Source: an uncultured bacterium | GTDB taxonomy: Bacteria; Patescibacteriota; Minisyncoccia; UBA6257; 2-01-FULL-56-20 | Assembly (NCBI GenBank): GCA_963696395.1 | Contig: CAVOJZ010000002.1 | Span: forward strand, 363,989-427,988 | DNA length: 64,000 bases | Reading direction: 5' to 3' | Shown: in pieces, positions 18,376 through 37,012 of the stretch | Layout: each line of letters begins with the position of its first letter | How positions within the stretch are numbered: the stretch's first letter is position 1 | Made by a program: the position numbers and the translations under genes | Notes under the pieces: model-generated | The model's input: only the letters and a program-made list of their open reading frames with translations | The model's database searches: none | Told to the model about the DNA's origin: nothing

Positions 18376-19265
18376 CTTTCAGGAGCGACGTCGCGCGTAT
18401 CGGTGAGTGGATTGACCAACCACTGCTTCGGCGCAACAACGACCTTGCCCGGATTCCGAGAGAGCCACGCGGCCCACCAAGCAAACGAACTGTTTGGGAT
18501 AATGAAATGCTTACAGAGCGTCATGAGATGAAGGGCATTCGCGCATTCCGGCCCATTATGCTCGTCTCCAACGAACACATGCTCGACATCAATTTTAAAG
18601 TTTTCACGACACCAGTCAATCTCGTCGGATGAGATATAAAATACGGGATTCGAACCCGCTTTCTCTTTCATTATCGCAATCGCACGTTCATAGTACTCCG
18701 GCGTCGCCACGTAATAAAGCTTGCGTAAGCGCTCGAGACGAACCGTTTCTTTTCGTCTGATAAAAAGCGAAACAGCATTTACCTGCGAAATTTGTTTAGC
18801 CAGATCTGCGGTCTTACCCCCAAGCGAAGGACGAAATTTAAAATCTCCCCTAATCTCGGGCTCATATTGATGGAAGTATTTTTCCGACTGGAAATATCCG
18901 TCCAGATAAATATCGCCCTTGAATTTAAAAAAGTCTGGGTTGAAGACATATGGGTTTGAATCTCCGATGTATTGCCACACACCAAGCCCCGCCATCGTAC
19001 GCGCATAAAACTTATTTATTGCTTTGGCCACGTATGGTATGCGCACCCGTGATTGAATCTTAGCGACTGCGGCATAACGCGGGTCGATGGAAAAAACCGT
19101 TGGAAGCCCGTAAGTGCGGATGGGGTTGTCTTTCCAGGGCGTCGGATCGAAAAGCGGCGACGGATCAATTCGCAAACCGTCATTATTGTGGAGCGAAAGT
19201 GCGCGGCCGGCTGCATACTGGAACATCTGATTGCCGAGGCCTCCGTGAATCCGCGCAGTAATCAT
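18360..19265 (-). CDS. glycosyltransferase family 11 (alpha-1,2-fucosyltransferase-like), copy A
   Basis: N-terminal IHGGLGNQMFQYAAG is the GT11 hallmark. Confidence 0.75.
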   Translation of the reverse strand: MITARIHGGLGNQMFQYAAGRALSLHNNDGLRIDPSPLFDPTPWKDNPIRTYGLPTVFSIDPRYAAVAKIQSRVRIPYVAKAINKFYARTMAGLGVWQYIGDSNPYVFNPDFFKFKGDIYLDGYFQSEKYFHQYEPEIRGDFKFRPSLGGKTADLAKQISQVNAVSLFIRRKETVRLERLRKLYYVATPEYYERAIAIMKEKAGSNPVFYISSDEIDWCRENFKIDVEHVFVGDEHNGPECANALHLMTLCKHFIIPNSSFAWWAAWLSRNPGKVVVAPKQWLVNPLTDTRDVAPESWIKI

Positions 19266-19495: not shown

Positions 19496-20320
19496 TCAGC
19501 TTTTGAGCGCTTCCAGAATGGTGTCTAGCTTCTCCTGGTTGATCGCGGCCACCATGTCGCCGCATCGTTCCGGTGTGCATGGTTTGCCGTTGAAGTCGGT
19601 GATAATGCCACCGGCTTCTTCAATGAGCAGCCACGCCGGCCAATTATCCCACGGCTTATTGCCGACACTCACAAACGCGTCAGCTCTTCCCATCGCAACG
19701 GTCGTGGCGGCAACGCACGTTGACATACCCGGACGCACGGTGATGCGCGACCCAAGCAACGATATCGGCGGCTTGAAGAATTTCTTGGATGACCCTTCAA
19801 GCATCACCACGAGCCGATCCTGCTTCCGTGCCTTTGCGGCATCCAGTCGATGGTACTCACCGTGCTCGCCACACCACTGCCACGCCCCCTCCCCGCGAAC
19901 CGCGTAGAAGAAGCCATTCTTTCGCAGGAAGTGGTCAACCGGTCGGAAAAGCGCCGCATAGACGATATGTTAAGCTTTACGCCGAGCGACCATGCCTCCG
20001 AAAGAGTTCGTGCCCAAGGCGTGATTGCCGGTGCCATCAAGTCCGTCGACCGACCACTGAGGAAAAATACTTTTCAGTATTTCTGTCAGTTCTTCGGCGC
20101 TACGGTTGTCTTCTTCCCCGATGATATCGTCGCCCGGGAAACAGTCACTGATAGTTTTCCTTAACTGGGCAAGCGTGAAATGGTCAAGACTGCCAACGGG
20201 AGTATCGTCCGCCTTAATCTTGGTTGCCATCTCGGCGTGAGCCGTTGCGATATAGTGCGGAGCAAGCGAGTCGAAGCATAGACCCAAAGCTGCCGTCGTT
20301 CTTGTGTATTCACTAAACAC
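19496..20320 (-). pseudogene. inositol monophosphatase/CysQ-family gene disrupted by two frame changes
   Basis: Three consecutive minus-strand ORFs in three frames (20320-19970, 20040-19804, 19810-19496). Together they carry the WSVDGLDGTGN (DPxDGT-like) and WDNWPAWLLIEEAGG (WDxAAG-like) IMPase motifs. A paralog at 31102-31923 is intact. Confidence 0.45.
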
Positions 20321-20367: not shown

Positions 20368-20928
20368 TTACGTCAATTCGATTACCGGAGGATTGTTCTT
20401 ATCAATCAGCGGCCAATTTGCGTCTTTGTCGGAAATGATTGTCGGCGTCTTGAATGGCCATTCGATAGCGAAGAACGGATCATTCCAGCGCAGGCCGCGC
20501 TCGTGCTCGGGCGAATAAGCTTCGGTTACGAAATATTGCAACTCGGAATCATTTTCAAGAACCTGAATGCCGTTCACGCACCCTTTCGGGCAGATCACCA
20601 TATTGAACTTATCCGGAGAAAGTTCAACGGTGAGCCATTGACCGTACGTCGGCGATCCTTTGCGAATATCGGCAACGGCCCAGAAAATCCTGCCGCGGAG
20701 GCATTGCAACATTTTATCCTCTGCTTTCGGAGGCACCTGGTAATGGAGACCTCGCGTCGTGCCTTTCACTTTGCTGAGTGAGCGGTTGATGTGAACAATA
20801 TTGTAGTCGATTCCCTGTTTGGCAAATTCTTCCTTCGCAAAATTCCGCGTGAAATAGCCACGCTCATCCATCCGGGGTTCGAGCTCGATAATCCAGACGC
20901 CGTTAATTTTTGTTTGCGTAAATTTCAT
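20368..20928 (-). CDS. dTDP-4-dehydrorhamnose 3,5-epimerase-like cupin (RmlC family; probably an NDP-6-deoxy-sugar/heptose 3,5-epimerase)
   Basis: MKFTQTKINGVWIIELEPRMDERGYFTRNF is the RmlC N-terminal pattern. The start is taken at the internal ATG at 20928. Confidence 0.65.
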   Translation of the reverse strand: MKFTQTKINGVWIIELEPRMDERGYFTRNFAKEEFAKQGIDYNIVHINRSLSKVKGTTRGLHYQVPPKAEDKMLQCLRGRIFWAVADIRKGSPTYGQWLTVELSPDKFNMVICPKGCVNGIQVLENDSELQYFVTEAYSPEHERGLRWNDPFFAIEWPFKTPTIISDKDANWPLIDKNNPPVIELT

Positions 20929-20992
20929 AGCTTGATCTTCTCGATGATTATACAAATATTACAAAATCGGCGCAATTATTATGCAATCCCCT

Positions 20993-21844
20993 TTATCGAT
21001 ATGACGCAAGCATGGCGCGTATCCCCTTGCGGATATCCACCGCAGGCTTCCATCCGATCTCTTTTTTCACGCGCGAAACTTCGGCATAGAATCCCGTCGC
21101 TTTCCCGCGTCCCGCGATCACTTTCCTGCCGTAGATAATCTCCGCGATCTCCCGCACGCCCGTCACCCTGCCTGATCCAAGATTGAATACCGAACTCTTG
21201 GCGTCCTTTTCGACGAGCATCCGGAGCCCGCGGGCAATGTCGCCCACGTACACAAAATCATTACCGCCGTTCGGATTTTTCACCTGCGGCATTTCACCGC
21301 GAAGCTTGCTCTCGATGAGATGCGGAATAAGCGATGCTGATTTCTGCCCGGGGCCATACACATAAAAAATTCTCCCCCAAACGAAACGCATGCCATAGGC
21401 CTGCGCTGCCGCTGCGCCGATGCGATGCAGAGCGATCTTCGAAGCCGGAAACGGTTTTTCAATTTTGACGGCGTCGTCTTCGCTCACCTTGCCAAGATCC
21501 ACGCCATACTCCCAGCAACTGCCCGTCGCGACAATCTTTTTGCATTTTGCATTGCCAAGTGCGCGGACAAGATTCATGCCGTACACAAGGTTCCGCATGC
21601 TGGCTTCGGGGCCGTAATCGGGGATGCCCTCCCATGCCATATGGAGCGCGGCGTCCGGTTTGAATTTCCTGAGTTGTTTTTCCCATGTGGCGAGTGTCGA
21701 AAGATCGCCGCGAATATAGCTTGTCTTGCGCGAAGGCGTATGCTTGCCACGCGAAAGAACAAGGAGCGTGTGTCCACGCTTCTTCAACTCTTCAACCGCG
21801 TGGCGTCCTACAAATCCAGTTCCGCCGGTTACGAAAATTTTCAT
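20993..21844 (-). CDS. NAD(P)-dependent sugar nucleotide reductase/epimerase (SDR extended family)
   Basis: MKIFVTGGTGFVGRH. Its stop overlaps the start of the upstream gene. Confidence 0.6.
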   Translation of the reverse strand: MKIFVTGGTGFVGRHAVEELKKRGHTLLVLSRGKHTPSRKTSYIRGDLSTLATWEKQLRKFKPDAALHMAWEGIPDYGPEASMRNLVYGMNLVRALGNAKCKKIVATGSCWEYGVDLGKVSEDDAVKIEKPFPASKIALHRIGAAAAQAYGMRFVWGRIFYVYGPGQKSASLIPHLIESKLRGEMPQVKNPNGGNDFVYVGDIARGLRMLVEKDAKSSVFNLGSGRVTGVREIAEIIYGRKVIAGRGKATGFYAEVSRVKKEIGWKPAVDIRKGIRAMLASYR

Positions 21845-23031
21845 GGACGTATGATTGATTTTACCACGCCGAGCAGGTCGCCATTCGATTCCATGAGGAC
21901 GGCTTCGGCGCCCGCGGCCCAGGCGGCTTCCGCATCACGGGGGTCATCGCCAATCATCATTGTTTTCGTGGCGTCAAAATAGTGTTCGTTCGCAGCGCGA
22001 AATATGAGGCCCGGCTTTGGTTTGCGGCAATCGCAATCCTCGTTGAAGCCGTGAGTACAATAATAGGTTCCGGAAAAAACAACACCGGATTTTTTGAGTT
22101 CTTCTTTCATCCGCTCGTCAATGTCATCCAAATCTTTCTGGGCCATGGTTCCCTTCGCGACGCCGGGCTGATTAGAAATGAGATAAAGCTCATATCCGTT
22201 ATCGCGCAAAAGCTTGAGGCCTTCGATTGCATGCGGCAAAAAATGAAATCCGTTCCGTTGCCTCACCTGCTCGCCTTCGGGCGGCCGCTCGTTGATCACG
22301 CCGTCGCGATCGAGAAACATAATTTTCCTCGGTTCGAAAAATTTTTCCGTGATCGGCAACCGCTCAATAGATCCGAGACTGTAATACTGGTGGCTCGTCA
22401 TATATCCGGCGAGTTTGCGCATGGCGATAAGTTTCGGGAACACTTCTTTTTCAAAATGGAAATCTCCCTCTGGAGCAAGATCAAGCACCGCTTTGTCGAG
22501 AATGAGAAAACCGATATCAACGCCGTTCAAGCCCGGCTCCGTCCTGCTCCTGTCGTACTTTGCCACATAGCCGTCTTTATCCACCAACATATTGTTCTTC
22601 GTCGTTTTGGTGTTGTTGTCGAACACAACGACCGACGCCGGCACTTTTTGCTTTTCATAAAATGCCGTCAGATTCTTAAGATCGAGCGGCCAATAGTTGT
22701 CGCAATACATCAGGAGGAAACGGTCGTCGATAAACGGCGCCGCATGCATAAGGCGCGCGCCGGTGTCGTACTCAACCGGAGTAACGTCGTAGGTGATATG
22801 GACGCCAAACTTTGACCCGTCGCCAAAATGGTCCTCGATTTTATCGGGCAGATAGCCGAGCAACATAAGGATCTCCGTAATGCCATTCGCGCGGAGAAGC
22901 TCAACCAAATATTCAAGAAACGGCCGCCCCTGGATGGGAATCATGGGCTTCGGCATGGTGTCCGTGAGCGGACGCATGCGCGTGCCGAGGCCGCCGGCGA
23001 AGATAACCGCCTGTTTTATTTTTTTGCCCAT
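21841..23031 (-). CDS. bifunctional D-glycero-alpha-D-manno-heptose 1-phosphate guanylyltransferase (HddC-like) / D,D-heptose 1,7-bisphosphate phosphatase (GmhB-like HAD) fusion
   Basis: The N-terminal half, QAVIFAGGLGTRMRPLT, is a sugar-1-P nucleotidylyltransferase. The C-terminal half, KIMFLDRDGVINE...YLISNQPGVAKG...GDDPRD, carries the HAD motifs typical of GmhB. Confidence 0.65.
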   Translation of the reverse strand: MGKKIKQAVIFAGGLGTRMRPLTDTMPKPMIPIQGRPFLEYLVELLRANGITEILMLLGYLPDKIEDHFGDGSKFGVHITYDVTPVEYDTGARLMHAAPFIDDRFLLMYCDNYWPLDLKNLTAFYEKQKVPASVVVFDNNTKTTKNNMLVDKDGYVAKYDRSRTEPGLNGVDIGFLILDKAVLDLAPEGDFHFEKEVFPKLIAMRKLAGYMTSHQYYSLGSIERLPITEKFFEPRKIMFLDRDGVINERPPEGEQVRQRNGFHFLPHAIEGLKLLRDNGYELYLISNQPGVAKGTMAQKDLDDIDERMKEELKKSGVVFSGTYYCTHGFNEDCDCRKPKPGLIFRAANEHYFDATKTMMIGDDPRDAEAAWAAGAEAVLMESNGDLLGVVKSIIRP

Positions 23032-24053
23032 TGCAATCCGTCGTCGAGTCGTTGGCCTTCCAAAAGAAAATTAATCTGTTTCAGACGATTGCATGAGCGG
23101 CCCCGGAATTGTTCTTCGGTGAGATTCACTTTCTTGAAAAATTCAACGAGTTCTTTTCCTCCGTTATCCAAATTCCATTGCGGCTTAAAGTAATCCTTGA
23201 GGACGGTAAGAATTTTATCGAAGCTCACGCGATACGTGCGCGAATCGGCTCCGTGCTCGCCGGTAAACTTGAGCTCGCTTCCGGGGACAGCGCGCTGGGC
23301 CGCCTCCGCGAGATTGCGCACGGTGAAATTACCGTTCGGAATACCGACATTGAACGATTGTCCTCCAACGAGGTTTACCGGTGCTTCGAGGCCGGCGATG
23401 TAGGCAGCCGAGACGTCGCGCACGTGCACCACTGGCCGCCACGGCGTGCCGTCGCTCTTGATTTCGATTTTGCCCGTGACGAATGCCGAGCCTACCAGGC
23501 TGTTATAAACGATGTCGGCGCGGAAATTCGGGCTTGCGCCGAAAACGGTTGAAGGGCGCATGCAGACAACCACGAAATCGTTTGAATGTAATTTCTTGAG
23601 CGCGACTTCCGCGTCCCACTTGGTGCGCGCGTAGGCGGTGACGCCATAAGGACCGGCTTCGTCTTCCGAAAGCTCATGGCTCGTATCGGCCATGCCATAC
23701 ATGCTCTGTGAAGAGGAATAGATAAACCGTTTCACGCCGGCCTTCTTGGCGAGCTCCGCAATTTTGAGCGTGCCGCCCAGGTTGATTTCTTCCGTAAGCC
23801 CCGGCTTCAATTCGCCCAGCGGATCGTTCGAAAGCGCGGCGAGGTGGATAATGGCATCGATCCCCTGCACGTCGTCAATGTTTGCGGCGCGGACATCTTT
23901 TGTGATCTGGCGGGTTGGCTTTGCGCCGGCCATTAAATAGCAATCCTCGTAATAACCCGTGTCGAAGCCAACCACTTCGTGCCCTTTGGCCAAAAGCATT
24001 TCTGTGAGTACGGATCCGATATAACCGCGATTGCCGGTAACAAGAATTTTCAT
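23016..24053 (-). CDS. NAD-dependent epimerase/dehydratase family, paralog B
   Basis: MKILVTGNRGYIGS and a YxxxK motif (YARTK). Start at the ATG at 24053. Confidence 0.6.
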   Translation of the reverse strand: MKILVTGNRGYIGSVLTEMLLAKGHEVVGFDTGYYEDCYLMAGAKPTRQITKDVRAANIDDVQGIDAIIHLAALSNDPLGELKPGLTEEINLGGTLKIAELAKKAGVKRFIYSSSQSMYGMADTSHELSEDEAGPYGVTAYARTKWDAEVALKKLHSNDFVVVCMRPSTVFGASPNFRADIVYNSLVGSAFVTGKIEIKSDGTPWRPVVHVRDVSAAYIAGLEAPVNLVGGQSFNVGIPNGNFTVRNLAEAAQRAVPGSELKFTGEHGADSRTYRVSFDKILTVLKDYFKPQWNLDNGGKELVEFFKKVNLTEEQFRGRSCNRLKQINFLLEGQRLDDGLQWAKK

Positions 24054-24143
24054 AATATGGGTACTATAGGATAAAGCGAACGGAAAATAAAGAGGCAGGC
24101 CCGGCAAACAAGCTCAATTTCGTAAATATAGTATACTCCCTTT

Positions 24144-25607
24144 ATGCTTTCGAGGATAAAAAGCTTCCTGTTCCGGAACAGCTCCACCAAGCAAACGGTC
24201 GCCAAAAACACCGTCTGGCTCACCATTTCCAACTTTGGCGGCCGCCTCATAAAAGCCGTCGTCATCATCTATGCCGCCCGCGTGATGGGCGCGGCCGACT
24301 ATGGAGTTTTCTCGTACGCGCTAACGCTTGCCGGGTTTTTCACGCTCCTAATTGATCCGGGGCTGAATGCGGTCATCATGCGCGATGCATCAAAAAGCGA
24401 CGACGAGCGCCGCATTGAAATATTTTCGACGACGGCATTCATCAAATTAGTACTCCTCGTCGTCGGCGTTTTCTTTGTTGTCTTTGTCGCGCCATTCTTC
24501 AGCACGTTGCCGGGAGCCCAAATCCTTCTTCCAATCGTCGCCTTCATTATCGTCTTCGACAATCTGCGCGATTACCTTTTCTGTTTTATCCGCATCCGCG
24601 AAAAGATGGAACTCGAAGCCGGTATCTACCTCGCGATGAATATCGCGATCGTCATCCTGGGATTCATAGCACTCCACGTCCACCCGACACCCCTCAACTT
24701 CGGCCTATCGTACGTTGCCGGCTTATCGCTCGGTTTCCTCGCGGCGCTGTGGACCGCACGCGGATATTTGCCGACCATCTTTTCAAAATTTAAAAAGAGC
24801 ATCATCCGCCCGCTTCTTGAGTCGGCGTGGCCGTTTGCCGTAACGGGCGCGCTGGGTATCCTCCTTACGAATACCGACATCCTCATCATCAGCTGGATGC
24901 GCACGGCGATTGACGTCGGCATCTATTCCGCCGGCATCCGCATCGTCCAGGTGTTCTACCTCATCCCGACCGTGGTGCAATACGCAACACTCCCCTTACT
25001 CGCACGACTTGCGAATAAAGATAATGGAAAATTCAGGACGGTATTTGAGCGGACCATCGGCACCATGTTCCTTCTTTCGATACCGCTCGCGATAGGCGGT
25101 GTCGTGGTGGGCACGCAGGTGATGAGCGCCGTCTTCGGGAGTTCGTATGCAAGCGGCGGTTTGGCTTTCAAGATACTCATGCTTACCATGCTCGTTGATT
25201 TTCCCGCGACCGTCATCGCAAATGCTGTTTTCATCTACAATCGCCAAAAAAGCCTGATCGTCACTTCGGCAATTGCAGGTGTCATGAATATCGTTTTTGA
25301 CCTTATATTGATCCCCCCGTTCGGCATGGCCGGCTCAGCAATTGCAACGCTTATCGCGCAGGGCGCGAGCAACTGGTATCTGTGGAGCACGCTGAAAAAG
25401 ATAAACTACTTTGAGGTTTTGCCGCGCCTCGGCAAGGCTGCGGCCGCCGGCGTTATCATGGGTCTTGCGACGGCGCTGCTCGTAGCTACCGGGCTCAATA
25501 TATTTGTAACCATCCTTATCGGCGCCCTTGTGTATGCGCTCCTCTTATATTTCTTACGCGAACCGTTGTTTTTGGAAATTGGCAAAATAGCGCTCGTCAC
25601 AGAATAA
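24144..25607 (+). CDS. wzx: Wzx-type polysaccharide flippase, copy 2
   Basis: 487 aa. Colinear and clearly homologous with copy 1, with a large fraction of identical positions by eye (for example MLSRIKSFLFRNSSTKQTVAKNTVWLTISNFGGRLIK). Confidence 0.65.
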   Translation: MLSRIKSFLFRNSSTKQTVAKNTVWLTISNFGGRLIKAVVIIYAARVMGAADYGVFSYALTLAGFFTLLIDPGLNAVIMRDASKSDDERRIEIFSTTAFIKLVLLVVGVFFVVFVAPFFSTLPGAQILLPIVAFIIVFDNLRDYLFCFIRIREKMELEAGIYLAMNIAIVILGFIALHVHPTPLNFGLSYVAGLSLGFLAALWTARGYLPTIFSKFKKSIIRPLLESAWPFAVTGALGILLTNTDILIISWMRTAIDVGIYSAGIRIVQVFYLIPTVVQYATLPLLARLANKDNGKFRTVFERTIGTMFLLSIPLAIGGVVVGTQVMSAVFGSSYASGGLAFKILMLTMLVDFPATVIANAVFIYNRQKSLIVTSAIAGVMNIVFDLILIPPFGMAGSAIATLIAQGASNWYLWSTLKKINYFEVLPRLGKAAAAGVIMGLATALLVATGLNIFVTILIGALVYALLLYFLREPLFLEIGKIALVTE

Positions 25608-25709
25608 ACGCGGGCTTTGACCGGGGTTAGAGTTGCCAATTTCCAACAATGGCTTATTCTTAAGAGCGTTATCAGCAGGCGCGATTAATCAATAAAAACA
25701 TTCATTATT

Positions 25710-27464
25710 ATGGAAAAAATCAGTGTCGCAAAATATTTGATTTCGCTCATTCCCGGCACTGGCGTCGATACCGTTGGAGTGCTCCAGGGTGGCGCCATCG
25801 CAAAACTTATCGATGAAGTGGGCGAACATCCCGACCTCTCCTATGTTTCGCCCAACCATGAACAGGCGCTTTCCATGATGGTCGAGGCCTATGCCCGCGT
25901 TAAAGGTTTCGGCGTCGGCATGGTTACGAGCGGACCCGGCGCACAGAATCTTGTGACCGGCATCGCCTCCGCCTATTACGATTCCATCCCCTGCCTTTTT
26001 ATAACCGGCCAGGTCGGTATGTTCCACAACAAAGCGAATCGCCGCGTCCGACAGCGTGGCTTCCAGGAAACGGACGTCGTGAGCCTCATGAAGTCGATAA
26101 CGAAATACTCCGTGCTCCTCGACAAACCGGAGGATGCCCGTTACATTTTTGAAAAAGCGGTTCACCTCGCAAAGTCCGGCAGGCCGGGGCCGGTGCTCAT
26201 CGACGTTCCTTTTAACGTTCAACGGGCGCTTGTTGACCCGTCGGAACTCCGCGCCTACAACCCGGAACCAGTCGAGACGTCATCGCCTGCAGAAATCGAC
26301 CATGGCATCACGGAAATCCTCCACGATCTTCAGACAAAAGAAAAGCCGATCATTCTCCTTGGCGGTGGTGTCGAGCTTTCGAAGACCGCAGGAGCGGTGC
26401 GAAAGCTCGTAAAGCACGCGCACGTGCCGGCCGTCGTCACCTGGTGCGCGCTCGATGTTTTTGAAGCGAACGACCCGCTCTATGGCGGCAACGTCGGCCG
26501 TGCCGGCAATAAATCGGCCAATCGGGCAATCCGCGAAGCCGATTTTGTTCTCGCGCTCGGCACCCGGTTTGCAACGAAAGCTATTATCAGCGAAAAAAAC
26601 TTTGCGACGAAAGCAAAAATCACCACCATTGATGCCGACCGTGGCGAACTGGAAGACGGCCTCATCACTTCACACGTCAAAATTCAATCGACGCTCGAAA
26701 AATTTATGCCGCCGCTTCTTGCCGCTGCAGAAAAGGTGAAATTTACGCCGAAGCAGGCATGGCTCGAGGAATTCGCGGCGCTCAAAGCTGACTATTTCCG
26801 CGAAGATAATACGCCGGCCGGAAGTGCCTATGTGAGCCCTTATGAATTCACGGCACGGCTCTCAAAGGCAATGGATCCGAACACGATTATCGTCGGCGAC
26901 ACCGGCACAAACCTTTGCTGGGTCGCACAGGCGTACGAGGCAAAAATCGGCCAACGGTTCTTTTCGTCTTGGGGCAATTCGCCCATGGGATATGCTCTGC
27001 CGGCGTCCATCGGCGCACAGATCGCAGCGAAAGACAAAACGGTTGTCTGCATCACGGGCGACGGCGGCATGCAAATGAATATCCAGGAACTGCAAACGAT
27101 CGCCCTGCATAAATTCCCGGTAAAAGTTTTCGTCTTTAATAATGATTGTTATATGAACGTGAAAGCTCCATCAATCGACGAATTTGAGGGACGGTACCAC
27201 GCGCTCGGCCGGGGCATGGGTTATGCCGCGCCAGATTTCGTAAAAATCGCGAATGCCTACGGCATCGAAGCGTTCTCCATCAAAAAGGGCGACGATTTGG
27301 ACAAGAAAATTCAGCAGGCACTTTCCACGAAGGGGCCGGTTGTGGTTGACCTGAAGCTCGATCCCGATCAGCGTGCCGTCGAGGATAATGCGCTGGTCTC
27401 GCTCCCCGCGTTTGCTGCCCAGCCAAAATCGGGCGCTCCAGCCACTCCGGAAACAAAAAAATAA
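25710..27464 (+). CDS. thiamine-diphosphate-dependent acetolactate-synthase-like enzyme (YerE-like branched-sugar carboligase candidate)
   Basis: Three-domain ALS-like layout: an N-terminal pyrimidine-binding domain, a central LLGGGV domain, and a C-terminal ITGDGGMQMNIQEL...NN ThDP-binding motif (GDG-x24-NN). Confidence 0.65.
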   Translation: MEKISVAKYLISLIPGTGVDTVGVLQGGAIAKLIDEVGEHPDLSYVSPNHEQALSMMVEAYARVKGFGVGMVTSGPGAQNLVTGIASAYYDSIPCLFITGQVGMFHNKANRRVRQRGFQETDVVSLMKSITKYSVLLDKPEDARYIFEKAVHLAKSGRPGPVLIDVPFNVQRALVDPSELRAYNPEPVETSSPAEIDHGITEILHDLQTKEKPIILLGGGVELSKTAGAVRKLVKHAHVPAVVTWCALDVFEANDPLYGGNVGRAGNKSANRAIREADFVLALGTRFATKAIISEKNFATKAKITTIDADRGELEDGLITSHVKIQSTLEKFMPPLLAAAEKVKFTPKQAWLEEFAALKADYFREDNTPAGSAYVSPYEFTARLSKAMDPNTIIVGDTGTNLCWVAQAYEAKIGQRFFSSWGNSPMGYALPASIGAQIAAKDKTVVCITGDGGMQMNIQELQTIALHKFPVKVFVFNNDCYMNVKAPSIDEFEGRYHALGRGMGYAAPDFVKIANAYGIEAFSIKKGDDLDKKIQQALSTKGPVVVDLKLDPDQRAVEDNALVSLPAFAAQPKSGAPATPETKK

Positions 27465-27470
27465 ATAACT

Positions 27471-28319
27471 ATGAAAAAAATATTCATCATCGGCAACCAG
27501 GGCTTCATTGCACGGGAACTCGCGCGGCAGTGCGAAAAGAAAGGTATTGAGTGCGCCGGCGTTGACCTCCCGGTCGACATGCGTGATAAAGATTTCGGAA
27601 AGTATTTATCCGAAGATATTGATGCCATAGTCCATCTCGCCGCCCTTTCAAGGACCCCGGATTGTTCAGGGAAAATGTATGAAACGTTTGACGTAAACGT
27701 CCAGGGCGCATTAAACGTTTTGCGCGCGTCCCGCGAAAAGAAAATCCCTCAATTTATTTTTGCCTCTTCGGAATGGGTTTATCCCGACAGCATGGAAGAA
27801 GTAAGCGAAGATGTTCCTTTGGATATTTTAAAGGCTCCGGCGGAATATGCGCTTTCAAAAATGGTGGCCGAAGCAGCGCTCAAGCAAGACTGGCAGAAAC
27901 ACGGAGGAAACGTAACTATCACGCGCTTTGCGATCGTCTACGGTCCTCGTCCGAAGGAAAAGGTGTGGGTTGCCGTTGAAAGCATCGCAAGTGCCGTGAA
28001 AAACCAGGACACGGTCACCGTTGGATCACTAAAGACAGGACGGAGATTCATCCACGTGGAAGATCTTGCCTTGGGCATCCTTGCAACGCTTGGAACGCCG
28101 AGCTACGAAGTCTTCAACCTTTCCGGACAGAAATTTGTGAGCATGGGAGATATCATCGCCGCCAGCGAGAAGATGTTCGGAAAGAAAGTGAAAATTGAAG
28201 AAAAAGGAGACGCCCCCAGCACGAGAAACCCTTCGAATAAAAAGGCTCACGACGTCCTCGGCTGGAGCCCCCGCATAAGCCTGGAAGAAGGTCTTGAAAG
28301 CGTGAAGCAGTATCTCTAG
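27471..28319 (+). CDS. NAD(P)-dependent SDR-family sugar nucleotide reductase (YerF-like candidate)
   Basis: MKKIFIIGNQGFIAREL and a YxxxK motif (YALSK). It starts 7 nt after the ThDP enzyme. Confidence 0.55.
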   Translation: MKKIFIIGNQGFIARELARQCEKKGIECAGVDLPVDMRDKDFGKYLSEDIDAIVHLAALSRTPDCSGKMYETFDVNVQGALNVLRASREKKIPQFIFASSEWVYPDSMEEVSEDVPLDILKAPAEYALSKMVAEAALKQDWQKHGGNVTITRFAIVYGPRPKEKVWVAVESIASAVKNQDTVTVGSLKTGRRFIHVEDLALGILATLGTPSYEVFNLSGQKFVSMGDIIAASEKMFGKKVKIEEKGDAPSTRNPSNKKAHDVLGWSPRISLEEGLESVKQYL

Positions 28320-28334
28320 AAATTCTTTCCGGAG

Positions 28335-29261
28335 TTGTCCCCTCTCATGCATACAAAAATATTTGCCGCGATCGTCACATTCAATCCCGACGTGGAAAAC
28401 GTACGGAAGGCCGTTGGATTTCTTAAGTCGCAAGTGGACGGCGTATTTCTGTTCGACAATTATTCAAATCCCCAAATCAGAAGCGGCCTCCAGGATGTGG
28501 AACGGGAATTTCCCGGCTTCATGTTCCTCAATTTGAGCCCAAGGCACGAGAACGTCGGCGTGGCGATCAATCAGTGCATTAAGCCGGCGCGCGAGAAGGG
28601 CGCCGAATGGGTCATCTATTTTGATCCCGATAGTTTGGCCTCAACCGATCTTGTTGCCAAGATGCACGAAGCGCACGATGCGATGCCACAGGAAGTGCAG
28701 AAACACATCGGCGCTGTCGCACCGAATCACACCACGCTCAAAGGCCTGGCCTTTCCCCCCGGGAAGCCCTTCTTGACTAATGGAGCGATCATGTCCGGAA
28801 TGCTCATCAAAGCTTCCACCTTCGACAAAATAGGATACGTGAGCGAAATCGTATCTCTCGACGGCGTTGATGGAGAATTCTGCATCCGGATGCAGCGTGC
28901 AGGACTCAAAACACTCACGGTTCCTTCCGTAATTCTCCAAACGACTATCGGCAACCCAACGCTCCGAAAGTTGTTTTGGATAAAAGCCGAGATCCTCAAC
29001 CAGAAACCATATCGTTATTACACGATGGCGCGAAACTTCACCTGGATGTTTGTGCGTAATTACAAAACATACATCATAGGCAATGAAGATTGGCCTTCCG
29101 CAATCTGGGCAGTCATCATTCCCCGCTACATGATAAAGATGCTCTTTTTTGAAGATCGGCGCTGGGAAAAGCTCAAGCTCTATTTTCTTGGCACGTTTGA
29201 CGGCTTGTTCAACCGGATGGAACACGAACGATTGGAGCGCATTCTTAATACCTACGCGTAA
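28335..29261 (+). CDS. glycosyltransferase family 2 (WbbL/rhamnosyltransferase-like)
   Basis: IFAAIVTFNPDVENVRKAVGFLKSQVDGVFLFDNYS...IYFDPDS. Confidence 0.5.
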   Translation: MSPLMHTKIFAAIVTFNPDVENVRKAVGFLKSQVDGVFLFDNYSNPQIRSGLQDVEREFPGFMFLNLSPRHENVGVAINQCIKPAREKGAEWVIYFDPDSLASTDLVAKMHEAHDAMPQEVQKHIGAVAPNHTTLKGLAFPPGKPFLTNGAIMSGMLIKASTFDKIGYVSEIVSLDGVDGEFCIRMQRAGLKTLTVPSVILQTTIGNPTLRKLFWIKAEILNQKPYRYYTMARNFTWMFVRNYKTYIIGNEDWPSAIWAVIIPRYMIKMLFFEDRRWEKLKLYFLGTFDGLFNRMEHERLERILNTYA

Positions 29262-29319
29262 TTTTCTGTCCCGCTACACCGCATCACCCGACGCTTTTTA
29301 GCCTATGCGAGTACGGAAG

Positions 29320-29940
29320 CTACTTGGACTTGTCTCTCCTGTCTTCCGCCCGTTTCGCCATGTGGTCGAAATAATCCACGAAATAGAACGTGATGAGATG
29401 GAGGATTGTGCCGTGCACGGACTCCACGACACCGTAATCCCCTTTTTCGGTCTTCACAACGATTTTTGCGTCCGCAAGCTCATTCAATTTCCCGCCGTCA
29501 AAGCCGGACAGACCGATCACCGGGACCTGATGTCGCTTTGCAAGTTCAACCGCTTTGATAACATTTGGCGAATTGCCGCCGCTCGAGATGGCAACGATGG
29601 CATCTGATTCACGGATGTAATTTTCGAGCGGACCCGCGAAAATCATATCGTAGCCGACATCGTTTGCCCATGCTGTAATCTCGGATTCCGTTGAAGGAAG
29701 GCGAATAGCCTGGAAGCGCCGCACGCCCGAGCCAAGGTTGTGGCTGAACACGGTTTTGTTGAAGTCGCTCACCCAGTGCGTGGCCATCGCAAGCGAACCT
29801 CCATTGCCGAAGATATAAATGCGGCCATCGCGCTCATATGTGGCCTGCAAAATATTGACCGCCTTCGCGATCTCCTTCTTGGGGACATCGCGCAAAGCGT
29901 CGATGACCCGGTTTAAAAATATATCGAGATAGGATTCCAT
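29320..29940 (-). CDS. gmhA: phosphoheptose isomerase (SIS domain, GmhA)
   Basis: 206 aa. IYIFGNGGSLAMATHWVSDF and VIGLSGFDGG are the GmhA SIS motifs. Confidence 0.8.
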   Translation of the reverse strand: MESYLDIFLNRVIDALRDVPKKEIAKAVNILQATYERDGRIYIFGNGGSLAMATHWVSDFNKTVFSHNLGSGVRRFQAIRLPSTESEITAWANDVGYDMIFAGPLENYIRESDAIVAISSGGNSPNVIKAVELAKRHQVPVIGLSGFDGGKLNELADAKIVVKTEKGDYGVVESVHGTILHLITFYFVDYFDHMAKRAEDRRDKSK

Positions 29941-29949
29941 ACTTCTATA

Positions 29950-30975
29950 TTACGACATTCGTATCGGCTCGCTCTGATCGTTGTTCAGGAGCACCTCAAC
30001 GCCCGCATGCATGAACCGCACCGGAACCTGCGTGAATTCGGAAAGGTTGTTTTTTGCCGCAGCCGCAGTTACCGCTGCCTTTACCGCCGCTTGTTTCTCA
30101 TACGGCGTCATGAAAAGCACGCATCCGCCGCCGCCCGCACCGAGAATCTTTCCGCCCCATGCACCGGCGTTTTTGCCCGCGTCATACAACGCGTCAATTA
30201 CGGGATTTGAGACATTCGAAGCGAGTGTCTTTTTGGTGACCCACCCTTCGTGCAGCATCTCACCCATGCCTTCAAAATCCCCTTTCTCGAGCCGGTCGCG
30301 GAATTCAAACACCGAGTCCGACATTGCCTTCAAGGATTCCATCTTTTTATCTATATTAGCTTTCTGTTCGGTGAGAACCGATGATGCAAATCGCCGGATG
30401 CCGGTGTAGAAAAGCTGAATGTGGTCCTGAAATGCGCTTTCGATTTTGTAATCGACGTGCACCGGCGTGACGTCAACGCTATGATCGGCATTAAACTGAA
30501 AAATGTTGATGCCGCCGTACGCCGCCGCATACTGATCCTGTTTGCCGATTGGTTCTTTCACCAGATCGATCTCAAGATGCGAGGCGAGCTCGGCGATATT
30601 GCCGACAGAGATCCGCTCCTTTCGCGCGGTAAGAAGCGCCTTCATAAGCGCAACCGAAAAACTCGATGACGACCCGAGCCCCGTTTTTTCCGGGAGGTCG
30701 TTAAACGTCGTTATCGTCATATTGTTCGTGATGCCAAAATGGAGCAATGCCTCCCTGATCCTGTCGTTCTCAATGTCTTTCGCATGATCCACTTCTTCCG
30801 TTTTAAAATACCGCGCGGTCACTTTTTTGAGAAGCGGTGCGCGATTCACCGACACATAGACATATTTGTCGATAGCCGTCGAAATCACACGGCCCGGGTA
30901 CTTGGTATAAAAATCGGCGAGGTCGGTTCCTCCGCCAACAAAGCTGATTCGCATAGGGGCTCGAACGATAATCAT
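29950..30975 (-). CDS. hddA: GHMP-family D-glycero-alpha-D-manno-heptose 7-phosphate kinase (HddA-like)
   Basis: MIIVRAPMRISFVGGGTD and GLGSSSS are the GHMP kinase motifs. It is adjacent to gmhA. Confidence 0.65.
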   Translation of the reverse strand: MIIVRAPMRISFVGGGTDLADFYTKYPGRVISTAIDKYVYVSVNRAPLLKKVTARYFKTEEVDHAKDIENDRIREALLHFGITNNMTITTFNDLPEKTGLGSSSSFSVALMKALLTARKERISVGNIAELASHLEIDLVKEPIGKQDQYAAAYGGINIFQFNADHSVDVTPVHVDYKIESAFQDHIQLFYTGIRRFASSVLTEQKANIDKKMESLKAMSDSVFEFRDRLEKGDFEGMGEMLHEGWVTKKTLASNVSNPVIDALYDAGKNAGAWGGKILGAGGGGCVLFMTPYEKQAAVKAAVTAAAAKNNLSEFTQVPVRFMHAGVEVLLNNDQSEPIRMS

Positions 30976-31101
30976 GGTACCTGCATATAATAGATTAATT
31001 CGTTCTAAAGTCAATAAAATTTGACAAAATTATGATGAATGATATAATCTTTTCCGCACCTTCCAATAAGAAAATAACGGAGCCATCGTTGAGGAGACAA
31101 C

Positions 31102-31923
31102 ATGAAAGAAAGCACATTCGCAACAATTTACGCTACGGGTCTGTATAGGCTTACCCGGGATGCGTTCTGCAATGCAGGAGAACGAATCCTCGAAATCCGC
31201 CGCGAAGGGCTTGCCCCTGAAAGCAAGAAATCATTCCAGGACATCCGGACCAAAGGAGACATTGAAGCCGAATCGCTGCTCACCGCCTTTATAAAACAAA
31301 ACTTTCCGAGCGACGGCATCCAGGGCGAGGAAGGAACCTCTGAGTCTTTAACGGCTGATTACCTTTGGTACTTGGATCCGATCGACGGGACAACAGTCTA
31401 CGCCGCCGGAATGGATTACTTTGGGGTTTCAGGAGGGCGTGCGCAAAGCGGACGAGGCCACTTCGGTATTGTTCGTTTTCCCGCGCTCGGCTACACCGTC
31501 TTCGGCGGAAAATCCGGGGGCGGCTGGATAGATGACGGCACTACGGTCCGACGACTTCGGGAAAAACCCTCTCCCAAAAGCCTGCGCGAATCGACAATCG
31601 TACTCGACCTCAGCATCGACGAAGAGAAGAAATTCCGCGAACCATTTCAACGGGCATGCATGATGATCCTCAAGTTCGGCTCGTGCGTGTTCGAATGCTC
31701 ACTCGTCGCCCGCGGTCTCGTCGGCGGATATCTCAATAAGACCGCAAAGCGGCACGACGCCGCGGCGATATCCGTCATCGGCGAAGCCGAAGGCTGTATC
31801 GTAAACGATCTCGACGGTAAACCGATCGACCTCCGAAACGAGAATGTGCCATTCGCCATGGCCGGCAACCAGGCCATCATGGACGATATGCTCCTTCTCT
31901 ATCATCAGCTCGCGAAGCAATAA
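31102..31923 (+). CDS. inositol monophosphatase / CysQ family phosphatase (intact copy)
   Basis: WYLDPIDGTT and HDAAAISVIGEAEG motifs. A canonical GGAGGAG Shine-Dalgarno sequence lies upstream. Confidence 0.65.
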   Translation: MKESTFATIYATGLYRLTRDAFCNAGERILEIRREGLAPESKKSFQDIRTKGDIEAESLLTAFIKQNFPSDGIQGEEGTSESLTADYLWYLDPIDGTTVYAAGMDYFGVSGGRAQSGRGHFGIVRFPALGYTVFGGKSGGGWIDDGTTVRRLREKPSPKSLRESTIVLDLSIDEEKKFREPFQRACMMILKFGSCVFECSLVARGLVGGYLNKTAKRHDAAAISVIGEAEGCIVNDLDGKPIDLRNENVPFAMAGNQAIMDDMLLLYHQLAKQ

Positions 31924-31977
31924 AACGCTTCCAAAAAATAAACACCCCGTAGACCATGTATCGGTCTACGGGGATTT

Positions 31978-32706
31978 TTATCCTTTCCGCAACGCAAGCG
32001 CGTAGAGTTCGCTTGGGTCGCCTTTGAAGTTGAGTTTCACGGCCAGTTCTTTTTCGAGCGGCAGCACGACGCTGTCGAACGTCTCACGATGCGTCATTCC
32101 GTATTTCTGACGAAATGCCTCGTTCGCCCACTCATACCGCCCTCCGGGCTTGAATTCCGGGAGAAGGTCGTCGAACCGCTGTTTGTAGCCGACGATCTTA
32201 TCACCGGAAACACAATCATCGGCGTAATGCATCAGCTTGCCGCGGAAGTCGGCTTTTCCCGCGAGGATTCGATCGAGACCGAGATCGCCGGTCGTTTTTG
32301 CAACTTCCACAACCTCCGGTGAAAATCCAAGCTCGGTCAAAAACGCGCCCGCAGCCAGTTCGGCTTCCCGATTCGCCGTGTGGCGATCCACTCTTTCACG
32401 CTTCGCCCTTTCACCAGCCTCCCACTCCCGGCGCTTGTAAGCGTCGTGCACGAGGCCGGCCTCAACGAGTATCGGGTCGCCATCGCTCAGGCAGTACGCC
32501 GTCCAGGCAACAACGACATTGTGCGCAACCACGTTTATCCAGGTTCGATTCAATTCCCCGTTAGCCCATCCCGGAGAAAGCAATCCTCCCTGTTCCCAGG
32601 CCGCGACCACTCTGTCGGGCACCATACTCACCGGCAATGCAGGCAGAAGCTCGTTGATACTCTTAATGCGGTTCTCCGACTCAACAAAATAATTGGATAC
32701 CTCCAC
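31978..32706 (-). CDS. hypothetical protein, possible HD-domain phosphohydrolase
   Basis: The VVAHNVV...LVHDAYK...HYADD pattern is suggestive of HD-domain metal ligands. The assignment is weak. Confidence 0.3.
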   Translation of the reverse strand: MEVSNYFVESENRIKSINELLPALPVSMVPDRVVAAWEQGGLLSPGWANGELNRTWINVVAHNVVVAWTAYCLSDGDPILVEAGLVHDAYKRREWEAGERAKRERVDRHTANREAELAAGAFLTELGFSPEVVEVAKTTGDLGLDRILAGKADFRGKLMHYADDCVSGDKIVGYKQRFDDLLPEFKPGGRYEWANEAFRQKYGMTHRETFDSVVLPLEKELAVKLNFKGDPSELYALALRKG

Positions 32707-32855
32707 GAACCCTCCTTCGTAAGCAGATTATCAAGATTACCACTGGCGCAATTATATCATATAAACCTTTTTAGTCAATGCTACGGCGAAAAACCCCGAC
32801 CTTGGAATGTCGGGGTTTTCTTTGTTGTGGTTACGTTCTCACTTAAGCTCTATGC

Positions 32856-34135: not shown

Positions 34136-35029
34136 CTACAGCCTCGTCCACCCGTCCGGAACCACATCCTCATTCCCCTGTGACGACGGGCTCCATCGCG
34201 CAGGCGCAACCACAATCTTTCCGGGATTTTCATTCAGCCAGGCACCCCACCAGGAAAAACTGCTGTTCGTAATCACGTTATGCTTGCACATCGACATAAG
34301 TTGGAGATGATAGCTTGCCTTTGGCCCTTCCGACGCCCGATCGATATACGTTGTCGGGAATGGAGGTTTTATATTTTCTCTGCACCACGCAATGTCGTCC
34401 GAAAAGATAAAAAACTTAGGATTTTTTACATGTTCATCGATGTAGGCGATTGCTTTGTCATAATAAGAGGAGTTGGTTTCTCCGTAAAGACTAGTGTTCT
34501 TGGGGATTAAATAGTCCGTACGCCGGACATGAAGCGAAACCGAATTTGACTCTCTGATATCTTTCGAGAGATTAAGTGCGTCGCCTTCGAGCGCGTGCTT
34601 AAATCGAAATTCTTTCCGCAATTCCTCTTCGATATCTGCGAAATAGCCAGGCGTCTGCCAGTATCCCCAAATAAGAATATTTCCCCTTGCATCGACGAGG
34701 TTTCGATCGAACACAAGTTCCTGCTTTTCTTTTAAAATTTTCTGGATGCCAAATGAATTTTTGATCTTGAGAAGTCCTAAATCGAGGCCAAGCCAGAGCC
34801 CAGGAACCGACATTGCGGTTGAGAGCTTCGAGAGCGTCGTAAACTTCGGCGTGATGTCAAAAATGTCGAGGTCGTATTCACGAAAGGTGAACTGCTTTCG
34901 TGGAAACCGGTCGTTCAGGTAGGTCGAGTCAATGAGTAAGGGGTCGTTATTTCTTTTTGCAATGCCCAATCCTGCAGCATATTGGAACATCTGATTTCCC
35001 AAACCGCCGCGCAAAAGTACAGTCACCAT
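34136..35029 (-). CDS. glycosyltransferase family 11 (alpha-1,2-fucosyltransferase-like), copy B
   Basis: LLRGGLGNQMFQYAAG is the GT11 hallmark. Confidence 0.75.
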   Translation of the reverse strand: MVTVLLRGGLGNQMFQYAAGLGIAKRNNDPLLIDSTYLNDRFPRKQFTFREYDLDIFDITPKFTTLSKLSTAMSVPGLWLGLDLGLLKIKNSFGIQKILKEKQELVFDRNLVDARGNILIWGYWQTPGYFADIEEELRKEFRFKHALEGDALNLSKDIRESNSVSLHVRRTDYLIPKNTSLYGETNSSYYDKAIAYIDEHVKNPKFFIFSDDIAWCRENIKPPFPTTYIDRASEGPKASYHLQLMSMCKHNVITNSSFSWWGAWLNENPGKIVVAPARWSPSSQGNEDVVPDGWTRL

Positions 35030-35039
35030 GTCGTTGCTG

Positions 35040-37012
<1,973 letters not shown>

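Follow-up and report, generated by a model that had tools for sequence, protein, structure and literature searches.

The first 39 kb of a 64,000-nucleotide stretch of DNA from an uncultured member of the Patescibacteriota (contig CAVOJZ010000002.1, positions 363,989 to 427,988; we refer to the whole stretch as the window) form one very large surface-polysaccharide locus, in which a single protein of 396 residues joins a nucleotidyltransferase resembling HddC to a phosphatase resembling GmhB. From gene content and from comparison with related loci, we propose that the window directs the synthesis of a nucleoside diphosphate (NDP)-linked, probably guanosine diphosphate (GDP)-linked, D-glycero-heptose, which would be oxidised at C4 and then probably C-methylated, epimerised and reduced; we give this reading a rough probability of 0.55. 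The HddC-GmhB fusion is common and not peculiar to the window. It is widespread yet uncharacterised, and the core chemistry that it would serve is textbook.

In the pathway that we infer, with regard to each chemical step as well as to the nucleotide, the order of tailoring and the regiochemistry, a GmhA-type isomerase would convert sedoheptulose-7-phosphate to heptose-7-phosphate and an HddA-type GHMP kinase would add the anomeric phosphate. Of the two domains of the fused protein, the GmhB-like HAD domain at the C-terminus would then remove the 7-phosphate and the HddC-like domain at the N-terminus would couple the product to a nucleotide, such that the fusion would join two consecutive steps. 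The sugar would not be deoxygenated at C6; a Cj1427-like short-chain dehydrogenase/reductase (SDR) would oxidise C4, giving an NDP-4-keto-heptose that keeps its 6-hydroxyl. This 4-keto-heptose may feed a C-methyltransferase, placing a methyl branch at C3 or, less likely, at C5, as well as an RmlC-fold epimerase, with C4 finally reduced either by an SDR that lacks the catalytic tyrosine (20993-21844) or by a second Cj1427-like SDR (16193-17263). An additional enzyme pair resembling YerE and YerF, a thiamine diphosphate (ThDP) enzyme and an SDR, may place a two-carbon branch on this keto sugar or on another one.

The fused protein and its predicted heptose pathway

The gene content, the family assignments, the fusion, the gene order and the conservation of that order were all observed directly. 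We used domain models from Pfam and NCBIfam, compared the proteins with solved relatives by PDB sequence matches (in bits), and judged likely starts from Logan gene calls, alignment starts and homologue lengths. The four core heptose activities all fall inside 9.2 kb of the window:

29320-29940, minus strand: gmhA-type sedoheptulose-7-phosphate isomerase with a SIS_2 domain (predicted step 1)
29950-31014, minus strand: hddA-type GHMP kinase, predicted heptose-7-phosphate 1-kinase yielding the alpha-1,7-bisphosphate (step 2); likely start about 30975, about 341 aa
21841-23031, minus strand: fused protein of 396 aa in one continuous open reading frame (ORF), nucleotidyltransferase plus HAD-IIIA/GmhB
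21841-22329, minus strand: its C-terminal HAD-IIIA GmhB-like phosphatase domain, residues 235-396 (predicted step 3)
22342-23031, minus strand: its N-terminal sugar-1-phosphate nucleotidyltransferase domain, HddC-like, residues 1 to about 230 (predicted step 4)

A preceding reading of this DNA, made from the sequence only, had assigned the last two activities to one protein of 396 residues, and both domains do lie in a single ORF. The Pfam match to NTP_transferase (PF00483) covers residues 8-142 of a domain that extends to about residue 226, and the HAD-IIIA/GmhB-like match covers residues 235-381. Because an independent Logan assembly contains the identical ORF and the architecture is common to the top relatives of the protein, the fusion is not a frameshift or an assembly artefact.

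The HAD domain exceeds the cut-offs of the HAD-IIIA and histidinol-phosphatase-domain models (TIGR01656, 130.6 bits; TIGR01662, 93.8 bits), and its best named matches are to GmhB models (133, 111 and 86 bits, all under cut-offs), the 133 bits being those of the beta-type model and the 86 bits those of the alpha-type. Its closest solved relatives include E. coli GmhB (2gmw, 77 bits) and HisB-N (72 bits). Across 12 fusions of 53-71% identity, HAD motifs I (DRDGVIN), II (SNQ) and IV (GDDxRD) and the zinc loop CxHG...CxCRKPKPG are invariant, including residues D241/D243, S286, K337 and D362/D363 and the zinc ligands C325-H327-C333-C335. The domain thus carries all GmhB/HisB-N motifs along with the Cys-x-His...Cys-x-Cys zinc loop, in agreement with the GmhB-like character first proposed for it.

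In the nucleotidyltransferase domain, the signature GGxGTR...PKPM is likewise invariant across 12 fusions. The domain scores 104 bits with the NCBIfam models of both ManC and MurU, 82 bits with HddC (cut-off 300) and 51 bits with RmlA, and among solved structures it matches a UGPase (8x7s, 100 bits) and MurU-like enzymes best, with 73.5 bits for Yersinia HddC (6jq8) and about 52 bits for RmlA. These values place it nearer to HddC/MurU/ManC-type enzymes (73-104 bits) than to RmlA (about 51 bits).

The SIS protein returned phosphoheptose isomerases as its 13 best PDB matches (top, C. jejuni 1tk9, 81 bits), scores 96.5 bits with TIGR00441 (cut-off 209) and contains the motifs GNGGS, SxGN and ExxH, with an aspartate at the position of the catalytic glutamate of E. 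coli GmhA. SIS isomerases linked to the fusion (loci L002-L085) fall into two types, a canonical HxAAE[LF] type and an aspartate type, H...D[FL].K; the window protein is of the latter type, which is common to many loci with the fused gene.

Kneidinger (2001) is reportedly the source for the alpha-anomer and GDP being reached through the GHMP-kinase route. The kinase of the window contains the GHMP N and C domains, has HddA as its best NCBIfam model (155.9 bits, cut-off 600), and scores far higher with solved heptose-7-phosphate kinases (B. pseudomallei WcbL, 150 bits; B. thetaiotaomicron 3k85, 141; C. jejuni 4n3o, 121) than with other GHMP kinases (fucokinase, 65 bits; galactokinase, 50; mevalonate kinase, 49). 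It therefore groups with the heptose-7-phosphate kinases at 121-150 bits and not with galactokinase or mevalonate kinase at 50 bits or less, placing it on the HddA side. The GHMP kinase HddA makes the alpha-1,7-bisphosphate, on a route that leads to the alpha-anomer and GDP (PMC10680097), and the GHMP type of the kinase is our only basis for predicting the alpha-anomer in the window pathway.

Searching for relatives of the fused protein, we found 4616 at E<=1e-10 among 8000 scored candidates, and nearly all of the top 120 are full-length fusions, at 51-83% identity; at least 584 relatives were confirmed in a scan of one genome per species. Carriers among the matches listed include Saccharibacteria and other candidate phyla radiation (CPR) bacteria, DPANN archaea, Desulfobacter, Dehalococcoidia, Acidobacteria and Verrucomicrobia, as well as Bradyrhizobium viridifuturi, Prosthecomicrobium, Bacteroides cellulosilyticus, Lachnospiraceae and Prevotella. 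In B. viridifuturi SEMIA 690 (L025) the locus runs gmhA, fusion, SDR, hddA, rmlC. We found no paper describing an HddC-GmhB fusion; the literature on HddC and bifunctional enzymes concerns HldE-type proteins or unrelated uses. Larger architectures also occur: relatives of about 600 aa (P0029, P0031, P0045 and others) have a third, P-loop kinase-like domain (PRK/AAA_18), which in a Desulfobacter locus (L005, 10181-10801) is a separate gene directly after the fused gene, and a relative of 606 aa (P0120) has SIS domains added, making it a natural HddC-GmhB-GmhA triple fusion.

We then assigned every ORF in related loci to its best-matching window protein, distinguishing close loci (fusion at least 40% identical, with flanks of at least 4 kb; n = 21) from distant loci (fusion 25-39% identical; n = 23). 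The loci were retrieved via the fused gene, and the following co-occurrence frequencies are therefore conditional on it:

hddA: 21/21 close loci, 18/23 distant loci, all on the strand of the fused gene
gmhA: 14/21 close, 18/23 distant, all on the strand of the fused gene
SDR of the type upstream of the fused gene: 18/21 close, 0/23 distant
RmlC: 12/21 close, 1/23 distant
C-methyltransferase: 12/21 close, 0/23 distant
SDR283 type (the SDR at 20993-21844): 6/21 close, 0/23 distant
GalE-like SDR (SDR_4784 type): 2/21 close, 13/23 distant

The same-strand linkage to hddA and gmhA argues strongly, on comparative grounds, for a place of the fused protein in a heptose pathway. With family matches for all four activities, it also upholds the earlier claim of a complete nucleotide-heptose pathway, which is very probably encoded in the window, with GDP as its likely nucleotide.

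Could the cassette make something other than GDP-heptose, either by using another nucleotide or by applying the same SIS/GHMP/HAD/nucleotidyltransferase logic to a different ketose phosphate? The matches to GmhA, HddA, GmhB and HddC are all under their NCBIfam equivalog cut-offs, and the nucleotidyltransferase domain, best matched by UGPase and MurU-like enzymes, is no closer to HddC than to MurU, ManC or UGPase, such that the use of guanosine triphosphate is only predicted. The aspartate of the SIS protein and the P-loop kinase-like domain of the longer relatives point in the same direction. We nevertheless consider this alternative improbable: for each of the SIS, GHMP and HAD parts, heptose enzymes lead the characterised matches by a wide margin, and the SDR coupled to the fused gene is closest to a GDP-heptose-binding enzyme.

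Proposed C4 oxidation and the 6-deoxyheptose question

On the minus strand, the fused gene is flanked by an SDR gene on either side, with an RmlC gene following (order: SDR 23016-24107, fused gene, SDR 20993-21844, RmlC); the spacings of -16, -4 and +37 nt mark these genes as one tightly packed unit. Its members other than the fused gene, a paralogue of the first SDR and a separate gmd unit are:

23016-24107, minus strand: Cj1427-like SDR, proposed NDP-heptose C4-dehydrogenase, 345 aa from a likely start at 24053; shares 16 nt with the start of the fused gene
20993-21844, minus strand: atypical extended SDR of 283 aa (PF01370, 134 bits), candidate C4-ketoreductase or C-methyltransferase partner
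20368-20955, minus strand: RmlC-fold protein (PF00908, 193 bits), 186 aa from a likely start at 20928, predicted to epimerise 4-keto sugar nucleotides at C3 and C5 (or at one of the two)
16193-17263, minus strand: second Cj1427-like SDR of 356 aa, a paralogue of the first, candidate alternative C4 reductase or oxidase
35993-37012, minus strand: gmd (TIGR01472, 525 bits, over the cut-off of 415)
35040-35984, minus strand: fcl-like gene (Fcl model best match, 301 bits)
34136-35029, minus strand: fucosyltransferase with a GT11 Pfam domain

The RmlC-like epimerase and the SDR directly downstream of the fusion had already been pointed out, and both are present in this unit; the epimerase, that SDR, the fusion, the isomerase and the kinase are all intact ORFs. 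Two genes had been overlooked, the upstream SDR (23016-24107) and a C-methyltransferase (32856-34091), and together they alter the interpretation of the locus.

The upstream SDR has 6vo6 as its best PDB match (112 bits; runner-up, 77), a C. jejuni protein of 313 aa that we take to be Cj1427. Its motif SSSQSMYG...YARTK, for which the Cj1427 counterpart is NTNSGYG...YGIDK, keeps the Ser/Thr-Tyr-Lys triad and is without the Glu/Asp acid/base pair of dehydratases. SDRs of this type, present in most close loci as listed above, adjoin the fused gene wherever adjacency was scored. An alignment of the SDRs adjoining the fused gene, drawn from 34 loci, separates three classes: a window-type class (SS[QC][SI]MYG...YA.[ST]K, no acidic pair) in the window and most close loci, a dehydratase-like class ([ST][PG]EE[FY]G) in L002, L004, L014, L017 and L021, and a GalE-like class (STSAVYG) in gut Bacteroidales and Lachnospiraceae. 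These motifs indicate that the fusion cassette exists in a 6-hydroxy version, to which the window cassette is assigned, and probably also in a 6-deoxy version. L002 and L004 additionally hold CmcI- and TylF-type methyltransferases.

Cj1427 binds NADH tightly, recycles it by means of alpha-ketoglutarate and releases the 4-keto product (PMC10680097). A Cj1427-type 4-keto route that retains O6 is, by the likeness of the upstream SDR, the course that we favour for the window heptose, with somewhat less assurance than the choice of GDP. A second candidate for oxidation or reduction at C4, the SDR at 16193-17263, is 37% identical to the upstream SDR and 28% identical to the C. jejuni Cj1427-type representative (P0244); its type adjoins the SDR283-type gene in three CPR loci (L003, L006 and L016).

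The sequence-only reading had suggested a different product, a GDP-6-deoxy-heptose made by gmd together with the RmlC-like epimerase and the SDR that follow the fused gene. The model has some appeal, as gmd is only 13 kb off in the same polysaccharide locus, heptose 4,6-dehydratases are themselves GMD homologues (7us5), and the dehydratase-motif SDRs of the five loci named above suggest that 6-deoxy variants of the cassette probably exist. For the window, however, it is very unlikely. The window Gmd scores 449 and 416 bits with plant and E. coli GMD, respectively, versus 130 bits with the C. jejuni GDP-heptose 4,6-dehydratase (7us5), and its gene is packed with fcl and the fucosyltransferase gene at gaps of 8 nt (gmd to fcl) and 10 nt (fcl to GT11); the SDR that is coupled to the fused gene resembles Cj1427 and has no acid/base pair, and the downstream SDR is not GFS/DdahC-like. 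By these matches gmd, fcl and the GT11 gene are an ordinary GDP-L-fucose module, and on both the scores and the fucose-unit setting we reject gmd as the heptose 4,6-dehydratase. A second GT11 gene lies at 18360-19265.

Candidate tailoring enzymes

We assign the epimerase and reducing steps only loosely. The RmlC-fold protein exceeds the equivalog cut-off for dTDP-4-dehydrorhamnose epimerase (TIGR01221, 166.2 bits versus 155.75; dTDP, deoxythymidine diphosphate), and by inspection it keeps the His (RGLHYQ), Lys, Tyr and Asp (SDKD) positions, being of the S. enterica RmlC type. Positions governing C7 specificity have been described as RmlC Ser65/Phe129 changed to Ile/His (PMC7949155).

The downstream SDR (20993-21844) finds MoeE5, GalE and Rmd as its best PDB matches, with GFS at just 32 bits. 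It belongs to a discrete family of about 290 aa (SDR283; 385 representatives at E<=1e-30 in a full-library search) in which the catalytic tyrosine is rarely found: among 141 aligned members, the position is occupied by F in 119, L in 14, I in 4, Y in 3 and C in 1, while the Ser/Thr is present in 141/141 and the Lys in 139/141, and the Rossmann motif is kept. The orthologues in heptose loci show the same pattern (F or L, and Y once only). In the best SDR283 representative (P0364, 667 aa; family set P0364-P0513) the SDR is naturally fused to a sugar C-methyltransferase, a fusion that ties the family functionally to C-methylation. The resemblance of the epimerase and this SDR to DdahB/DdahC or MlghB/MlghC, proposed in the sequence-only reading, does not hold up, as the RmlC-fold protein scores 42-51 bits with the Campylobacter GDP-heptose epimerases versus 138 bits with dTDP-type RmlC, and the SDR is not GFS-like and has no catalytic tyrosine.

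The C-methyltransferase is encoded apart from this unit:

32856-34091, minus strand: TcaB9/TylC3-type S-adenosylmethionine (SAM)-dependent sugar C-methyltransferase, predicted to act on NDP-4-keto sugars (Methyltransf_13, Methyltransf_23 and Methyltransf_14)

TcaB9/TylC3-type enzymes methylate C3 of NDP-4-keto sugars. All three domains of the type were found by Pfam, namely the zinc ribbon (Methyltransf_13), the SAM domain and the C-terminal Methyltransf_14, and the protein matches TcaB9 (220 bits), MtmC (217) and KijD1 (205) over its full length. Orthologues of 34-55% identity lie inside heptose operons in 12 of the 21 close loci, and 13 of 14 loci with the C-methyltransferase are without a canonical gmd within 10 kb. 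Gene orders in these loci include:

Saccharibacteria L006: C-methyltransferase, RmlC, HddA, GmhA, SDR, fusion, SDR283 type, SDR356 type
Desulfobacter L005 and L007: fusion, PRK-like, SIS, SDR, unknown, C-methyltransferase, RmlC, SDR, HddA
Six Acidobacteria loci: fusion, SDR, HddA, C-methyltransferase

An orthologue is also found among heptose genes in Dehalococcoidales (L009) and in Verrucomicrobia. We know of no described C-methyltransferase of this type that acts on a heptose, and we found no relevant literature on C-methyl or branched heptoses. C-methylation of the window heptose itself, judged from this gene setting, has in our estimate slightly less than even odds.

Several findings weigh against the pathway as we propose it, besides the low scores of the core enzymes and the conditional nature of the co-occurrence frequencies given above. 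The C-methyltransferase of the window lies outside the heptose operons, at the end of the gmd-fcl-GT11 unit; hddA follows 1.8 kb downstream, and the enzyme could have GDP-4-keto-6-deoxymannose as its substrate, as in the route proposed for virenose in Coxiella. The RmlC-fold protein is closest to dTDP-type enzymes, and the downstream SDR reads KPFPASK in place of YxxxK, giving Ser-Phe-Lys rather than Ser-Tyr-Lys. The upstream SDR is only 32% identical to Cj1427 (over 322 aa), the identity of 6vo6 with Cj1427 being itself presumed, and it could be a 4-epimerase that never releases a keto sugar.

These points bear on a further explanation, in which the heptose is left unmodified or merely C4-epimerised, and the RmlC-fold protein, the tyrosine-less SDR, the C-methyltransferase and the ThDP pair belong instead to dTDP- or GDP-linked 6-deoxyhexose pathways of their own (for example towards a 3-C-methyl-6-deoxyhexose made from the Gmd product), the locus being a gathering of the surface-glycan genes of a small genome. 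Both the epimerase score over the dTDP-4-dehydrorhamnose cut-off and a rhamnosyltransferase-like gene in the window would fit, as would the apparent co-transcription of the C-methyltransferase with gmd, fcl and the GT11 gene, judged by spacing and terminator position; in L003, too, a C-methyltransferase comes after gmd-fcl. We hold this explanation to be unlikely, although less so than a GDP-6-deoxy-heptose. No RmlA, RmlB, RmlD or other sugar-1-phosphate nucleotidyltransferase was found in the 64 kb window, and RmlC is inside the heptose operon both here and in 12 of the 21 related loci. Moreover, C-methyltransferase orthologues stand between heptose genes in loci that have no gmd, and the SDR283 family, fused to a C-methyltransferase in P0364, is represented here by the gene directly after the fused gene. 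We retain C4 oxidation followed by tailoring of the heptose as the preferred reading.

Two strong, bidirectional terminator-like hairpins (31945-31973 and 32790-32819; consensus matches only) part this region into three pieces, the C-methyltransferase unit, a gene at 31978-32706 and the hddA-gmhA unit. The protein encoded at 31978-32706 has a 42%-identical homologue adjoining gmhA in L002, and HD-like His/Asp motifs are visible in it by eye.

A possible second branching activity is encoded on the plus strand, between the two heptose units:

24144-25607, plus strand: Wzx flippase, between the two heptose units
25710-27464, plus strand: acetolactate synthase (ALS)/YerE-like ThDP enzyme with three TPP domains
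27471-28319, plus strand: SDR with an intact YALSK motif, 7 nt after the ThDP enzyme
After this SDR, in the block 25710-29261, plus strand: rhamnosyltransferase-like glycosyltransferase of the GT2 family (NCBIfam)

YerE and YerF are the paradigm for acyl-branched sugars (PMC9306805). The ThDP enzyme scores at most 389 bits with ALS models, all under cut-offs, and the nearest relative locus (L003) has the same enzyme at 69% identity, with GT2 and inositol monophosphatase (IMPase) neighbours; L002 and L004 have ThDP enzymes of the pyruvate-dehydrogenase E1 alpha/beta type together with the same type of SDR (SDR282). By analogy, we infer that the ThDP enzyme and the SDR form a yerE/yerF-like accessory pair for acyl-branching of a keto sugar.

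Combining these observations, it is conceivable that a widespread cassette builds carbon-branched heptoses, in which the fused HddC-GmhB enzyme would be followed by a Cj1427-type oxidase and TylC3-type C-methylation, with ThDP-dependent acyl-branching in some loci and a tyrosine-less SDR for the finish. Among the matches listed, the cassette ranges over CPR bacteria, DPANN archaea, Acidobacteria, Desulfobacter, Dehalococcoidia, Verrucomicrobia and some relatives of Bradyrhizobium. This wider proposal is tentative, the odds being clearly on the other side.

Neighbouring genes, significance and known systems

The polysaccharide locus also encodes a priming transferase, two Wzx flippases, one Wzy, at least seven GT2/GT11 glycosyltransferases, eight extended SDRs, several methyltransferases and one aldo/keto reductase, and beyond it lie housekeeping genes for RNase Y, iPGM, RNase J and a class I (Trp/Tyr-type) tRNA synthetase. 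The closest named relatives of the RNase J, at 77% identity, come from Patescibacteria/Paceibacterota, which makes a candidate-phyla bacterium with a small genome the most likely host. One of the extended SDRs (13259-14332, minus strand, 357 aa) matches the Epimerase domain in two stretches, residues about 6-131 and 170-352, suggesting that about 40 residues are inserted midway through the fold. Proteins encoded on the minus strand at 31978-32706, 17260-18375 and 37091-37747 gave no Pfam match at E-values up to 0.1, and the first two gave no NCBIfam match; the segment 1257-3249 (minus strand), inside the glycan locus, is likewise without a Pfam match.

Directly after RmlC lies an IMPase-family gene (19496-20320, minus strand) whose single frame is broken by a TAA at 19970-19972. 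The split is also present in the Logan assembly, and the gene is probably a pseudogene; as a functional phosphatase it was rejected on account of the in-frame TAA. An intact paralogue is found at 31102-31923 on the plus strand, and ahead of it, at 31021-31048 (plus strand), is a perfect 12/12 sigma-70-like promoter with an extended -10 TG, as a consensus match only.

The sequence-only reading had also pointed to a stand-alone gene resembling HldE domain II:

7125-7601, minus strand: stand-alone cytidylyltransferase-fold protein of 158 aa (PF01467)

The gene is present, but its product is only loosely alike (rfaE_dom_II, 76 bits, under the cut-off of 181.5), and its PDB matches are weak and mixed (ethanolamine-phosphate cytidylyltransferase, 51 bits; 3glv, 43; TagD, 38-46). 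The score of 76 versus 181.5 bits and these matches do not support it as HldC, and no link of the gene to the heptose genes was shown. Immediately upstream of it is the gene for a protein of 743 aa that has an LCAT (lecithin:cholesterol acyltransferase-like) domain, both lying in the segment 7125-10000 (minus strand).

Heptoses are antigenic surface sugars and heptose nucleotides act as innate-immune signals; to our knowledge, heptose biosynthesis is understood in detail for a few pathogens only. If the fused enzyme works as proposed, it would be the arrangement most often used for the two closing steps among many uncultured lineages, and it would offer a compact means of making GDP-heptose enzymatically. 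If the C-methyltransferase and the ThDP enzymes use a 4-keto-heptose, candidate-phyla bacteria would make new branched seven-carbon surface sugars; carbon-branched heptoses would be a sugar class not described so far, and the tyrosine-less SDR family would gain its first functional context. At present, our results amount to a well-supported correction of annotation and a testable prediction rather than a discovery, and the part most worth an experiment is the recurrent association with the C-methyltransferase and the tyrosine-less SDR family.

Joining two steps of nucleotide-heptose synthesis in one protein has a precedent in HldE, the bifunctional heptose-7-phosphate kinase/heptose-1-phosphate adenylyltransferase of the adenosine diphosphate (ADP)-heptose pathway. 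HldE, however, combines a PfkB kinase with a cytidylyltransferase, for non-consecutive steps towards the beta-anomer and ADP, whereas the window fusion combines a HAD phosphatase with an RmlA-fold nucleotidyltransferase, for what would be consecutive steps. With the classical GDP-heptose pathway the window shares the four enzyme families, their logical order, a GHMP kinase and clustering with surface-glycan genes. It differs in having GmhB and HddC as one polypeptide, with the nucleotidyltransferase N-terminal and the phosphatase C-terminal, and in the divergence of its proteins, which are under equivalog cut-offs, with Asp replacing the catalytic Glu in the SIS protein. The gmhB gene of C. 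jejuni lies outside the capsule cluster (PMC10680097).

The 6-deoxyheptose systems (C. jejuni DdahA/B/C, Y. pseudotuberculosis DmhA/B and B. pseudomallei WcbK) probably start from the same sugar nucleotide, and in them too an epimerase and SDR tailoring follow, but the GMD-like heptose 4,6-dehydratase that defines them is absent from the window heptose operons. The ThDP pair recalls YerE/YerF, which carry out the acetyl-branching of cytidine diphosphate (CDP)-4-keto-3,6-dideoxyglucose and then the reduction of the side chain, on the way to yersiniose, erwiniose and caryophyllose. Here too an ALS-like ThDP enzyme is followed, after 7 nt, by an SDR and then by a glycosyltransferase; the likeness is one of arrangement, and the window has no CDP-sugar genes. 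The C-methyltransferase has the full three-domain architecture of TylC3, TcaB9, MtmC and KijD1, at about 220 bits, and an NDP-4-keto sugar is the substrate that its family requires. The members characterised so far use 6-deoxyhexoses, whereas the heptose substrate is suggested here by gene setting. Branching by the TylC3-type family is of the dTDP-mycarose type, and the GDP-linked route to Coxiella virenose is a proposal.

For the D-glycero-L-gluco-heptose of C. jejuni HS:2, the C4-dehydrogenase Cj1427 is followed by the 3,5-epimerase Cj1430/MlghB and the C4-reductase Cj1428/MlghC. The window resembles this system in having a Cj1427-like SDR, an RmlC-fold epimerase and a further SDR beside GDP-heptose genes, with no dedicated heptose 4,6-dehydratase in either case. 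It differs in that its epimerase is of the dTDP-RmlC type and its third SDR is not GFS-like, with Phe for the catalytic Tyr, and in that it adds a C-methyltransferase and a ThDP enzyme to the set.

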